Both the position numbers and the translations under genes were made by a program. Positions 10,152 to 61,121 of a DNA stretch of 61,768 bases are shown in pieces. The notes under the pieces are model-generated. The model did not search any database, had not been told where the DNA came from, and saw only the letters and a list, made by a program, of their open reading frames with translations. How positions within the stretch are numbered: position 1 is the stretch's first letter; the number at the start of each line of letters is the position of its first letter. This stretch comes from Octopus sinensis (lineage: Eukaryota), in NCBI RefSeq assembly GCF_006345805.1, contig NW_021832238.1, positions 1-61,768 of the forward strand, in the 5' to 3' direction.

Positions 10152-10186
10152 GTTTAACGTTTCGAGCGGAGCCCTTCGTCGGAAAC
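10152..10186 (-). ncRNA. Minimal type I hammerhead ribozyme motif (U4C core) in a short non-coding insertion (~10053-10258)
   Basis: Minus strand: GUUU CCGACGA A GGGC UCC GCUC GAAA CGUU AAAC. Stem I is GUUU/AAAC, stem II is GGGC/GCUC, stem III is palindromic ACGU, and the cleavage triplet is GUU. Confidence 0.7.
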
Positions 10187-10323
10187 ATAGGAGAAAGAAA
10201 GATCCAGAGAAGGGAAGACAGAGGAAAAAAATCGCCAACGGTACACACGAAGTCATATATATATATATGACTTCGTGTATATATATACATATATATATAT
10301 ATTCATTGCAATCTATTATACTC

Positions 10324-10629
10324 GCACGTGGCTTAATGTTTAGAGTACAGTATTCGGCTTAAGCTCTTAAGATCATGAGTTCAATTTCCGGCAGCGCGTT
10401 GTGTCTTTTGACCAAGATACTTTATTTCACTTTGCCCCAGTCCATTGAGCTTTACCTGTAGTTCAAAGGGGCCAGCCCTATCACATTGTTTCATGCTGAA
10501 TCTCCCTGAGAATTACGGTAATGGTACGCGTGTCGTGTTGAGCCAGTTGCACGTTAAGTTAAAGAGTAGGCTGTTCCGTTGATCGGATGAGCTGGAACGC
10601 TCATCGGCGTAACCGGTGAAGTGCCAGTT
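10324..10629 (+). mobile_element. tRNA-derived SINE, family C (CORE-like central region)
   Basis: Degenerate A/B boxes (GTGGCTTAATG...GAGTTCAATTTCC), GTTGTGTC...CAAGATACTTTATTTCAC core, tail GGCTGTTCCGTTGATCGGAT...GTGCCAGTT shared with the 54969 copy. Confidence 0.75.
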
Positions 10630-11388
10630 GTAATATTAAAAAATTATGTAAGTAGTATATGCATGTGCATATATAATAGAAGTATGTATGTGTATATATA
10701 ATAGAAGTATGTGTGTGTATATACAAAAATAAACACACTGTTTTTTATATCGGTTAAACTTTAGTATGTCGGATAAACTTTCAACATTGGAATAAACAGT
10801 AAAAATAGAATATATGTAAGAAGTGTATATGCATGCGTATATAAATAGATATATGTGTGCGTATCTGTACAAAACTATATGCAATACCAGAGGGGGATAA
10901 ATATCCCCACTAACTTATTTTTCAAAACAGGATATAAAAGCTAGACAGCAATTAATTAACTTTAAATAGAGGCTGATTTGCTTGTAAATGGAGCCAGTTG
11001 TTTTGTTGGGAAAGACAGTGGGTAATTTAGATTCTTCAAATAAACAGTTGATAAGTACAGAAATGGTCAGTCTTCATCACTTTATCACTTTATTATCTCT
11101 AAACGATTAATGGCATTCTTCATTCTGTTTTGAACTTTCTTCTTTATAATCCGACCATGAAGATAGATCTGTAATTTATAGTAAACCTCACCCTTTGTGC
11201 AAAATCTTTTTCCTATTTTTGTATTTCTGTATTATTTTATTTCGATTATAATTGTATTTTGTCTTTCACTATATCTATGGATTTGTTTTGTTTTTAAATT
11301 GCTGTAAATAACAGACTGCGTCGGGTAGGCTCTCACACAGTGAGTGAACCGACAGCAGATCTTACGACGGAATTATTTAAAGAATCAC

Positions 11389-11481
11389 CTGAGGAGGCGC
11401 ATTTTACACAATGGATGAATGCTATTGATTTCACAACACCATAATATTACGAGTGTTAAAATGGGCTGAAACAATGCCGTT
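11389..11481 (+). ncRNA. Degenerate hammerhead-like motif with long stem II
   Basis: CUGAGGA (11389-95), then GGCGCAUUUUACAC pairing with GUGUUAAAAUGGGCU, then GAAAC (11468-72). Stems I and III are not convincingly formed. Confidence 0.4.
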
Positions 11482-11639
11482 CATTACATTTTCTATCTAT
11501 CTATCTATCTCACTCCTCTCTCTCTCTCTCTCTCTCTTCTCTCTCTCTCTCTCTATATATATATATATATATATATATATATATATATATATATATAATA
11601 TATATAATATATATATATATATATGTATACATATACGTG

Positions 11640-11971
11640 AAGGTGCATGACTCAGTGGTCGGAGCGTCGAGCTTACGATCGTGAGATTTAGAGTTCGAAT
11701 CCTGGACCGGTCTGCGTGTTGTATTCTTGAGCAAGACAATTTATTTCACGTTACTCCAGTTCACTCGGCTGTAGAAATGAGTTGCGACGTCACAGATGCC
11801 AAGCTGCATCGGCCTCTGCCTTTCCCTTGGATAACACTGGTGGCGTGGAGAGGGGAGGCCGGTATGCATGGGCGACTGCTGGACTTCCATAAACCACGTT
11901 ACCCGGACTTGTGCCTAAGAAGGTAACATTCTAAGTGCAATCCCATGGTCAGTCATGATCGAAGGGGGTCT
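11640..11971 (+). mobile_element. tRNA-derived SINE, family D (family C-like head and core, different tail)
   Basis: Head TGACTCAGTGG...GAGTTCGAATCC, core TCTTGAGCAAGACAATTTATTTCACGTT, distinct tail ending GATCGAAGGGGGTCT. Confidence 0.7.
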
Positions 11972-12088
11972 ATGCAGCATATATATACATATATGCATAT
12001 CACGTACGTACGTACATACATACATACATACATACATACATACATACATACATACATACATACATACATACATACGTATGCGTACATA

Positions 12089-12760
12089 CAGATTGTGCTG
12101 GCTAAATTTGCATAAAAGGAGAAAAAATAAACACAATATCCTGTTCAAAAATATAAGGGTTTTAAGAAATCAATAAATATGAACGATATTTTGACTGGGG
12201 AGTAAGAGTTAACTCAAAGCCGTTGCGCTCAGCAGCCACCACGGCCGCAAGACGGTACAAGAATCCGGCGCATTCGCGCCTCCCTGTGGTCCAGCGAAGA
12301 TCTTCAAGCGCTTCATTGATCATAGCCATCAGCTTGGCCTTGCTGTTTTAGGCACAGCGATTGATTTCTTTCTCAACCACGCATCAGGTTTACTATAAAT
12401 TACAATTCTATCTTCATAGCCAGATTATAAGGAAGAAAGTTCAAAACAGAATGAAGAATGCAATTAATTGTTCAAAGATAATAAAGTGATAAAGTGATGA
12501 AGACTGACCATTTCTGTACTTTGAAGGATCTAAATTACCCACTGTCTTTCTTAACAAAACAACTGGGCAGACATTGAGGTTGGTGAAGTAGATATTCTCT
12601 GACATCGACTTCTGACTCTTTCCACGGCAAAGTGCCGAATTCTGCTGCCTCACATATGGCTTTCCAGCAGTAATCCTCTCCAGCCATGGTTTATGCACTT
12701 CTCCAACAGCTTCATGTGGTCGTCTGCGTTGAGCCTAAGGTCCTCTTCCTGTAGGTATAA
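12089..12760 (-). mobile_element. maT/DD37D-like Tc1-mariner transposase remnant, interrupted at 12386-12566
   Basis: Minus strand reads KPWLERITAGKPYVRQQNSALC...SQKSMSEN.YFTNLNVCP. After the insertion it reads VVEKEINRCA*NSKAKLMAMINEALEDL...ECAGFLYRLAAVVAAERNGFE. This resembles maT motifs YVWQQDSAPCH...AC.RF..RL.AVV.A.G..FE. TA-CAG terminus at 12087-12091. Confidence 0.7.
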
Positions 12761-58828: not shown

Positions 58829-59414
58829 ATATATATAGAGAGAGAGAGTTAGCGGTTGTAATAACCGACTAAGGGATAAAATATCCGTATGTACTATCAG
58901 TATCCGTTACCCGTATTATCCCCTGGCATTGGTGTGCAGGTATACCATGCACGTAGAGTTCAGATAACAACAGGATAAGGAAGGGTTTATCAGGCACAAT
59001 GATTATTTGCATTTTATATATATATATATATATATATATATATATTATATATATATATATATATAGATAGATAGATAGATAGATAGATAGATAGATAGAT
59101 ATGATTATATACATATATAAAAATATGTATATAGGTATATTAAACGCAACATAATAAGGACAGTGAGGACCCACTCTGGGGGAGCGAGATCCATTATATA
59201 CCTATACTCCAGGGATATACAGTCGACTGGAAATTAATACAAATAGGTATTAATTTGGAAGGTGTCGGTTGTATGAGTACTGGAAAACACGAGGCAATAT
59301 TAGGTTCTATATGCTTTGGATTCAGAAAATGAATGGTCATAACTATTTATCACAAATATATTGTGTCAGCGGCGATGAATTAAAGGATAAAAATTCTTCC
59401 TGATTTATATAGAC

Positions 59415-59640
59415 CCTTAGGGCCAGTTTCCCGGTTTCTGTAGCGTGTATATATTATCCCTCTCTGGTCGGAAGTCCTATCTGATACAAGGTTACTCATT
59501 TTTACCAGCTGATTGTACTGGGGCAACGTGACATTAAGTGCTTTCCTCAAGAATACAACACCTCACACACTCTAGGATTCGAAACCACAATTTTACGATC
59601 ATGCGTCCAACTCGCTAATAACTATGCCACGCGCTTTCAG
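59415..59640 (-). mobile_element. tRNA-derived SINE with family C-like head and core and another tail
   Basis: Minus strand AAGCGCGTGGCATAGTTATTAGCG...GGTTTCGAATCC...CTTGAGGAAAGCACTTAATGTCACGTTGCCCCAG, tail ...GAAACCGGGAAACTGGCCCTAAG. Confidence 0.6.
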
Positions 59641-60742
59641 CAGGTGGTGAGTTAACAGCGTCGTTAGAGCATCGGATAGATTGTTTCGGCACTTTATAGT
59701 CTGAGGTGAAATCCTGCCGAGGTCAACTCAGCCTTTCAGCCTTTCTGAATCTATTAAATGATTCTCGTTCTGAGTCGAATTTTCTCATTCGTTCTTTCTG
59801 TATGACTTTCATCAGGAATAAATCGGATATGATCTGGCTTCGGTATAAATGGGCTCAGTGAAGTCTAATATATGCTGAAGGGATGCCGTACAATGCAATG
59901 GTACCCCTTCGTCTCCATCAAGGTGTTCTCAAGTGAGAGCAAGGCAAGTAGAGTACCAGTCAAGTACTCTGGGGGTCAAATCTTCTCTCTGTCTCTCTAT
60001 TCCCCCACTCTTCGTCATCTCTGTTTCTCTTTCCACTCCCTTTCCCTTCATCACTCTCTTCTCATCTTTCTCTCTCTCTCTCATACACACACACTCTCTC
60101 TCTTTCTCTGAATCAGCTTTGTTACTCTGTGAGAAAAGTTTTAGTTGATGACACACACCGCCTCTTTCTTAAGAAGGGAAGGAAGTTTGGGTGAGCGAAT
60201 AGCAGCTTCCTATCATAGAAGACACACACGCTCACGCACACATACACATACTCATGCATACATATACACACAGTCACACACAAACAGGACGAAAGAGAGG
60301 GGTTCGAATCGCAGTAGAATACGGACCTGAAATAAGAAAAATATATTTAACGGCAACATTCATTTTTCTTGATAAACATGGATACGTAGTCAAGAAACTT
60401 AATTTACAAAGCCGTAGCTATTTTGGTCTACTTTGGGCCGAACAATGACTTGTGAGTGAAGTTGTCAAACGGAGTCTGTGTGGAAGCTTGGCATGTATGT
60501 GTGTATGTATGTATTTGTGTTCGCGTTTATCTATCACTCAACCACCACCAACAACACCACTTCGCATACAATTGACAACTGAAATTGGTTTGTTTACATC
60601 CCCGTAACTTAGTGACTCGGAAAATATAGAGATGGACTGATTAAATATTAAGCAATATAGTTCGATATTCAAGAGATGAAGAATTATGTACATTATTTAC
60701 ATTATTTACATTTGATGGATACTTGTCCTCATCTTGTTTGAT

Positions 60743-60788
60743 AACACAACGTTTCGGCTGATATACCCTCCTGCCTTCATCAGGTGTC
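60743..60788 (-). ncRNA. Minimal type I hammerhead motif (one stem II mismatch)
   Basis: GACAC CUGAUGA A GGCAG GAGGGUAUAU CAGCC GAAA CGUU GUGUU. Confidence 0.72.
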
Positions 60789-60854
60789 TTGGGCAAATTT
60801 CGAACTAGGTTTCTCGTTCCTAAGGTATTTTTCGATATTATTATTATTATTATA

Positions 60855-60925
60855 GGTCACTGCCTGGAATCGAACTCGAAATCTTGGAGTTAGTAGCCCG
60901 CACTCTTAACCACTACGCCATATGC
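60855..60925 (-). promoter_or_regulatory. tRNA-derived Pol III internal promoter (SINE-type head)
   Basis: GCATATGGCGTAGTGGTTAAGAGTGCGGGCTACTAACTCCAAGATTTCGAGTTCGATTCCAGG has A box TGGCGTAGTGG and B box GAGTTCGATTCC. It lacks a proper acceptor stem, so it is not a tRNA gene. Confidence 0.75.
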
Positions 60926-61075
60926 TCGTGGGCATATAATAATAATAATATTAATAATAATAATATAATAATAATAATAATAATAATAATAATAATAATA
61001 ATAATAATAATAACAACAACAACAACATCGAAAAATACCTTAGGAACGAGAAACCTAGTTCGAAATTTCCCCCAA

Positions 61076-61121
61076 GACACCTGATGAAGGCTGTAGGGTA
61101 TATCAGCCGAAACGTTGTGTT
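61076..61121 (+). ncRNA. Minimal type I hammerhead motif, canonical core
   Basis: GACAC CUGAUGA A GGCUG UAGGGUAUAU CAGCC GAAA CGUU GUGUU. Stem I is GACAC/GUGUU, stem II is GGCUG/CAGCC, stem III is palindromic ACGU, and the triplet is GUU. Confidence 0.8.

Follow-up and report, generated by a model that had tools for sequence, protein, structure and literature searches.

The window analysed here is a 61,768-nt stretch of Octopus sinensis DNA (contig NW_021832238.1, positions 1 to 61,768), and its subject is a set of minimal type I hammerhead ribozyme motifs. The motifs are probably fossil 3' ends copied by Penelope-like retroelements (PLEs), that is, pseudo-LTRs (LTR, long terminal repeat), and one family, family A, probably represents a Penelope-mobilised short interspersed element (SINE) with a head derived from transfer RNA (tRNA) joined to a hammerhead end. 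For family A in particular we lean towards a SINE that depends on a PLE as its autonomous partner and not on a long interspersed element (LINE), its RNA polymerase III (Pol III) head being fused to a hammerhead pseudo-LTR, with tens of thousands of copies and a presence in at least five related organisms. The motifs, inverted 5'-truncated pairs, two 3' ends, family-wide head-hammerhead join and abundance were observed directly. Dense and diverse hammerheads are a known, published pattern; the new part is the tRNA-headed family A.

Structure of family A

The family A copy in the window comprises the following parts.

60655..60936 (-): family A element, about 285 nt, with head, (AAT)n linker, spacer, hammerhead and tail; bounded by read and contig depth
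60855..60936 (-): tRNA-derived head, 82 nt; A box at 60920-60910 and B box at 60875-60867, their starts 45 nt apart
60837..60853 (-): (AAT)n linker of variable length, with linker indels in RNA reads
60743..60788 (-): minimal type I hammerhead; CUGAUGA core with an extra A, stem III ACGU, predicted cut after 60748
60655..60742 (-): 3' part with an optional tail of about 30-40 nt; clusters of loose ends at 60659 and 60689-60699
60937..61185 (+): inverted copy, 5'-truncated in the linker, with the AAT/AAC run expanded to 61026; arm 89% identical
61076-61121 (+): hammerhead of the inverted copy, predicted cut after 61116

A 50-nt spacer separates the linker from the hammerhead, the 3' part is a short tandem repeat (AAATAATGT repeats), and nowhere in the sense strand do four T follow one another. 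In the plus arm the 3' part stops about 27 nt short of its end. Three pairs of A and B boxes were found in the window, one of which is the family A head. This head gave an ungapped 66-nt alignment with an ARAGORN-called head at 54969, with a score matched by 0 of 1000 shuffles; the scores against three further SINE heads of the window were reached by 1, 0 and 0 of 1000 shuffles. The ARAGORN call itself, a tRNA-Val at 54969-55041(+), is most likely a SINE head, and related heads lie at 10324, 11640, 42772(-) and 27297-27359(-).

Both window arms of family A have four alleles in common, and 72-97% of the family DNA depth is without them. Finding the same four minority alleles in both arms indicates that the arms derive from one template. 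At 60772 the majority letter (97-99%) restores a 5-bp stem II, so that the majority sequence of the family has a perfect core and stem II.

Family A has the features of a tRNA-derived SINE: an A/B-box head, a length of about 285 nt, no coding capacity, more than 22,000 contigs per run and a defined 5' end. It behaves like a PLE pseudo-LTR borne by a SINE; because it has no open reading frame (ORF) we do not class it as an autonomous PLE, and because it has no tandem ribozymes we do not class it as a retrozyme. It resembles tRNA-derived SINEs in its head, which is homologous to the other SINE heads of the window, in its high copy number and in its 5' truncation. It differs from them in its PLE-type hammerhead 3' part and in an insertion pattern that is PLE-like and not LINE-like.

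Family A in sequencing data

Reads and contigs of family A were taken from two DNA runs and two RNA runs, which come from other individuals or species. The family A stretch was present in runs of at least five organisms among the 20 of 24 matches listed; none of those listed was an RNA run, a blank to which we give no weight. In the two DNA runs 25,448 and 22,176 contigs aligned to it, and in the RNA runs 7,993 and 6,513 reads (620 and 544 per million). Depth was confined to about 60655-60936 and fell to near zero outside 60650-60940. Summed depth, divided by the depth of the listed pieces, corresponded to about 30,000 copies of the head and 80,000-97,000 of the hammerhead, figures that give an order of magnitude only. 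The hammerhead region was thus about three times as deep as the head, as 5' truncation would give, and the abundance of the family is roughly 10^4-10^5 copies. The earlier note had proposed a very large population of such elements in this genome; this holds for family A, the one family gauged. Exact family A patterns matched nothing in collections of genomes, viruses and metagenomes, an outcome to be expected of animal DNA.

The join between head and hammerhead is family-wide. Of the RNA reads at the linker, 339 out of some 810 and 275 out of some 710 carried an indel in it and hence aligned on both of its sides, and contigs of other family A copies also span the linker. A further figure, that 89% of reads run on into unlike sequence, was set aside, since it is inflated by indels in the reference. 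Reads and contigs from many different copies thus cross the join.

These data bear on the possibility that every locus, that of family A among them, is no more than the truncated end of an autonomous PLE; the tRNA-like head would then be a separate SINE that was absorbed into the pseudo-LTR of one PLE or landed beside it. Truncated PLE ends are the published default for single minimal hammerheads (extracts of PMC4209133) and fit the loci at 10182, 21360, 29891, 36061 and 46816-46986, the last with its AATAAA and (TA)n. For family A, however, depth stops at the 5' edge of the head (60936), where the joints and loose ends are varied or inverted, and no common sequence was found upstream of the head among those listed. 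A one-off join between a head and a PLE is excluded by the hundreds of reads, and the contigs, from different copies that span the linker. We therefore consider this explanation unlikely overall, although a minority of longer, ORF-bearing family A masters may exist.

The junctions at the two ends of family A have the form described for PLEs. Its 3' ends fall into two groups 30-40 nt apart, near 60659 and at 60689-60699; the loose ends at 60659 diverge (agreement 0.42-0.46), and RNA depth doubles across 60695. In 6 of the 15 joints listed, out of 138, the 5' end of the head (60919-60939) was linked to an inverted copy cut at varying positions, and one go-back joint, 60936->60697, fits a tail-less tandem. 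According to extracts of PMC8557442, an inserted PLE is typically a partial tandem, truncated at the 5' side and flanked by an inverted copy; it has a tail of 30-40 bp at one end and a bias towards microsatellites; PMC11167929 traces the PLE tail to two reverse-transcription start sites. Inverted truncated partners together with two 3' ends are the signature of PLE insertion, which makes family A likely to be a PLE-mobilised SINE.

The same junctions were weighed against mobilisation by a LINE, with a captured hammerhead PLE fragment as the body of the SINE and inversions arising by twin priming. The tRNA head, body and short tandem-repeat 3' part are all SINE-like. LINE-type twin priming also yields inversions; it inverts part of one copy, and the 3' region is not duplicated. 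The pair of 3' ends, separated by 30-40 nt, and the extra inverted copy lying against a complete 5' end instead match the descriptions of PLEs, and inspection of the window copy by eye revealed no target-site duplication at 60655/61185. Mobilisation by a LINE is thus improbable.

A further explanation is that the loci are retrozymes like those of coral, mussel and axolotl, which spread by way of RNA that a ribozyme has cut and that has then been circularised. Retrozymes have been proposed as PLE derivatives (bioRxiv 10.64898/2026.07.22.740005). Two same-strand tandem hammerheads were found at no locus in the window, so the earlier note's mention of retrozymes does not hold for any locus in the strict sense of tandem units that each carry a ribozyme. 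For family A, RNA ends showed no pile-up at the predicted cut site in the two RNA runs, a library type that is uninformative for cleavage, and no RNA go-back joints occurred among the 15 of 138 joints listed, in libraries that may lose small circles. As an account of the loci together we regard retrozymes as unlikely; their fit to family B is considered below.

Core positions of family A varied more in RNA reads than in DNA contigs (17-32% vs 7-16%), as did head positions (19-46% vs 4-20%). Depletion of intact ribozymes from RNA was rejected as an explanation: the difference is an effect of comparing reads with contigs, since head positions show an equal excess.

Several observations count against a Penelope-mobilised SINE. 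The Rfam scan of the family A head returned no score, the head being too decayed, and ARAGORN called it only at a 70% threshold. The window ends of family A do not lie in (TA)n. No compensatory stem change was seen among the 40 of 120 variant rows listed, and CpG sites decay alike in core and head (DNA, 7-16% vs 4-20%), so no selection for catalysis is visible in the genomic copies. RNA reads were split equally between mate directions, which indicates neither strand nor Pol III origin. The copy figures represent summed contig depth and not true copy number, and family A is the only one of the seven families that was looked at beyond the window. Finally, the frames of the window that were scanned yielded no PLE ORF, and an autonomous partner with a common 3' end is putative.

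Hammerhead motifs in the window

The window is AT-rich, microsatellite-rich animal DNA. It was searched with a type I descriptor consisting of stem I (at least 3 pairs), CUGANGA, an optional base after A9, stem II (at least 3 pairs), GAAA, stem III and UH. Motifs with at most one core change were accepted, U3:A8 being scored as one change. Eight motifs were found, with C3 at 10182(-), 21360(-), 29891(-), 39878(-), 40114(+), 46919(+), 60783(-) and 61081(+). Two had a strict core, two had U3:A8 and four had one change at position 3 or 4; an extra base followed A9 in five. The stem III loop was 2 nt or shorter in all eight, making stem III palindromic or near-palindromic, as the earlier note had it for most.

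Shuffled controls, which that note had proposed as a check, favoured real motifs. Global dinucleotide shuffles (n=200) gave a mean of 0.20 motifs and local dinucleotide shuffles (n=200) a mean of 0.28, with a maximum of 2 in each; none of the 400 shuffles held three or more motifs, and none reached eight. The reversed window and the complemented window each gave 0 motifs. It could be argued that the motifs are chance matches in repeat-rich sequence: most of the eight carry core changes, and several are not folded as hammerheads by minimum free energy. The shuffles and the perfect core and stem II of the family A majority sequence leave this reading practically no probability, and it is refuted for all but the remnant at 11389; the motifs are real and above chance. 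Two weak matches with two core changes, at 41411(-) and 55250(-), were not above background (shuffle mean 0.8-1.1) and were dropped.

Self-BLAST returned inverted repeats at 39670-40321, 46816-46990 and 60682-61185. The opposite-strand pairs 39824/40092, 46853/46914 and 60743/61076 are therefore single inserted units of two arms each. The earlier note had listed them as paired sites among its foldable motifs. The six loci that it gave stand, with the three pairs as arms of single inverted insertions, and the descriptor recovered eight of its motifs at agreeing coordinates; the motif at 46853(-) has a broken stem II, the one at 11389 has no stem I, and the one at 36061 is decayed and credible. 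A long-stem-II descriptor, designed after the 36061 locus had already been inspected, accepts 36061(+) with 10 pairs in stem II and 5 in stem I; any match occurred in 5 of 200 local shuffles. We regard 36061(+) as a credible, decayed ninth hammerhead motif.

Six hammerhead loci and the decayed 36061 make seven in 61.8 kb, or one per 9 kb or so in this window, in agreement with the spacing of 8-10 kb first estimated. Among 28 aligned pairs of loci none scored clearly above shuffled sequence (best z 2.4, reached by 8 of 200 shuffles), which bears out the claim of at least six unrelated families. The unrelated motifs 21360(-) and 29891(-) have a common architecture: a 7-pair stem I, a stem II with internal loop and terminal hairpin, a 5-pair stem III and A at H17.

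In the Rfam scan, hammerhead was absent among the 150 of 417 window matches listed, and two local scans over motifs returned no hammerhead. Standard annotation had been expected to miss the elements. Rfam does miss the ribozymes, and repeats as abundant as these are probably present in de novo libraries as unclassified SINE or Penelope. A Pfam scan covering 266 of the 462 stop-to-stop frames of the window that are not of low complexity found no reverse transcriptase (RT) or GIY-YIG domain, a weak result for old fragments; the suggested link to Penelope RT/GIY-YIG ORFs was thus not seen within the window.

Family B

Family B is represented by two insertions, one of which carries hammerheads.

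40014..40368 (+): family B unit, 355 nt; fold z -5.0, with 0 of 100 shuffles as stable
40108-40153 (+): family B hammerhead; U3:A8 core, palindromic stem III ACCUAGGU, long extended stem I
39939..40013 (+): 75 nt that repeat the 3' end of family B in direct orientation, a pseudo-LTR-like redundancy; 98.7% identical to 40294-40368
39676..39937 (-): inverted, 5'-truncated, tail-less copy; hammerhead at 39884-39839; 4 substitutions in about 260 nt relative to the plus copy; ends in (TA)n
35030..35222 (no single strand): second insertion, in (TA)n, with no hammerhead; inverted 75-nt tail (35030-35105, -) and 5'-truncated, tail-less copy (+)

Family B copies are about 98% identical and occur with and without some 45-50 nt at the 3' end. 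The tail fragment begins at the identical base in both insertions (35030-35105 and 39939-40013), which suggests that processing or template switching takes place at a fixed site, 75 nt away from the 3' end. A retrozyme reading is plausible for this family: the 355-nt unit falls inside the 170-400-nt retrozyme range, has a 75-nt terminal redundancy and folds strongly. Its same-strand extent is 1.2 units, with one ribozyme per strand and no tandem. Family B is a candidate retrozyme-sized PLE derivative. The earlier note had inferred a population of short non-autonomous elements, which is supported for family A, bounded by reads, and less firmly for the 355-nt unit of family B; at the other five loci truncated PLE ends are simpler.

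Other hammerhead loci

The remaining loci and the remnant are as follows.

46816..46986 (both strands): head-to-head pair of truncated ends of about 85 nt; descriptor and self-BLAST
46911-46956 (+): plus-arm hammerhead of this pair; core A4, stem III ACUC-U-GAGU, followed by AATAAA and (TA)n
core at 46887 (-): minus arm of this pair; stem II broken, fails the descriptor
10055..10281 (-): truncated end of about 200 nt with a short inverted cap (10242-10281); descriptor and self-BLAST; 3' end in (TA)n
10186-10152 (-): hammerhead of 10055-10281; core C4, stem III ACGU
21285..21390 (-): fragment of about 105 nt flanked by (TA)n tracts; fold z -2.8
21367-21301 (-): hammerhead of 21285-21390; stem I 7 bp, stem III AUCAC-AG-GUGAU
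29837..29898 (-): hammerhead; U3 core, stem III AUCGG-U-CCGAU; element boundaries undefined
36056..36172 (+): decayed hammerhead; C4 core, 10-pair stem II, 5-pair stem I, stem III mismatch
11382..11480 (+): hammerhead-like remnant; CUGAGGA core, stem II remnant and GAAA, no stem I; fails all descriptors

For the five loci at 10182, 21360, 29891, 36061 and 46816-46986 the simpler reading is that they are 5'-truncated ends of ordinary PLEs. PLE insertion geometry, with inverted 5'-truncated copies and partial tandems, was seen at four loci in the window. (TA)n was abutted by 5 of 8 homology-defined ends, compared with 8% of window positions lying within 10 nt of such a tract; the tally omits 4 of 12 ends whose boundary was set by the tract itself.

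Other features of the window

A Tc1/mariner transposon occupies 8347-10062, with terminal inverted repeats of 271 nt and a 283-aa frame with DDE_3 and HTH_Tnp_Tc3_2 at 8761-9609(-). A possible second mariner remnant lies at 41202-41480(-) (HTH_48, E 5e-4, below the curated cut-off). At 44252-44341(+) a sequence resembling U6 small nuclear RNA (46 bits, gathering threshold 44) adjoins (TA)n and is probably a retroposed pseudogene. Self-BLAST also found self-matching stretches with no hammerhead at 5785-5954, 12386-12566, 20995-21178 and 48252-48682, possibly miniature inverted-repeat transposable elements (MITEs) or ribozyme-less inverted PLE ends. The weak Pfam match Tmemb_161AB at 56117-56308(+) (E 2.7e-4, below cut-off) may be a host exon or a hydrophobic artefact.

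Relation to known elements

The link to Penelope-like retroelements that the earlier note drew is supported here and was already published (extracts of PMC4209133). According to these extracts an animal genome carries minimal hammerheads by the thousand; they are heterogeneous and mostly belong to truncated PLEs in single copy, with opposite-strand pairs 100-700 bp apart, a U3:A8 core, an extra base after A9 and a palindromic stem III; dimer cleavage was low, and 2,000-9,000 hammerheads per genome are quoted. The pseudo-LTR hammerheads of metazoan PLEs described there (Cervera and de la Pena 2014) are like those of the window in their many families, pairs, extra base, U3:A8 and palindromic stem III. 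Compared with the quoted numbers per genome, the local density of about 1 per 9 kb looks high, for one window only. In the description given in those extracts there is no tRNA-headed non-autonomous carrier such as family A. For octopus, a supplement row of PMC13282606 gives PLEs as 6.83% in 190 families, and ribozymes are not mentioned in the part of its text consulted.

Among known elements the Schistosoma repeat SMalpha is the nearest precedent; SMalpha and Sjalpha resemble family A in being short, non-coding retroposons in which a Pol III-type promoter is followed by a type I hammerhead (extracts of PMC6765202 and PMC8490949). According to the same extracts, the hammerhead of SMalpha is canonical and the element occurs as tandem repeats, with cleavage from multimers, and they state no PLE partner. 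Family A instead has a minimal hammerhead of PLE type, a monomer with an inverted truncated partner and an optional tail. Animal non-LTR retrozymes, in extracts of PMC7229834, are short, non-coding elements of 170-400 nt with a type I hammerhead, commonly solo monomers, and are proposed PLE derivatives. Retrozymes are defined by tandem ribozyme units and circular RNA, and no such array is present in the window; a tRNA head is absent from the main text on retrozymes (bioRxiv 10.64898/2026.07.22.740005) and present in family A. Our search, which covered published papers, did not turn up any hammerhead element described as having a tRNA head and being inserted by a PLE, and none appears in extracts of PMC6962438, PMC10886601, PMC4758252 and PMC8967140.

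Proposed mechanism and significance

In the mechanism that we propose for family A, Pol III would transcribe the unit from its internal A and B boxes. With only ACGU as stem III the monomer would cleave poorly, and uncut RNA would survive. A cut in the monomer would leave promoter and 3' end on separate molecules, so copies that retain the head imply templates that had escaped cleavage. From the published PLE mechanism and the insertion geometry, a PLE RT/GIY-YIG protein would most likely bind the 3' region of these RNAs, those of the other loci included, and nick AT-rich DNA; reverse transcription would begin close to the 3' end, at one of two positions separated by 30-40 nt. Truncated, tandem and inverted copies would then arise when synthesis stops early or switches strands, and would decay neutrally once inserted. 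The hammerhead, if it has a role, may act in dimers or in protein-bound RNA, or it may be a passenger of the recognised PLE end. In the anole PLE the hammerhead is protein-assisted and not needed for insertion in vitro, and no RNA-seq ends fall at its cut site (PMC11167929).

If family A is a Penelope-mobilised SINE, SINEs can be driven by PLEs as they are by LINEs, and one scheme would embrace the SMalpha-type repeats of Schistosoma, the pseudo-LTRs of PLEs and the retrozymes. Family A would then count as one of the most abundant hammerhead motifs of an animal genome, and the other motifs in the window would mark further such families. The majority sequence of family A retains a perfect core, although the predicted cut would sever promoter and 3' end. 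The finding makes it testable why PLEs retain a hammerhead that is unnecessary for insertion in vitro (PMC11167929). At 285 nt and with thousands of junctions, family A would offer a minimal template for mapping how the PLE protein recognises its RNA and how tails and inversions form.

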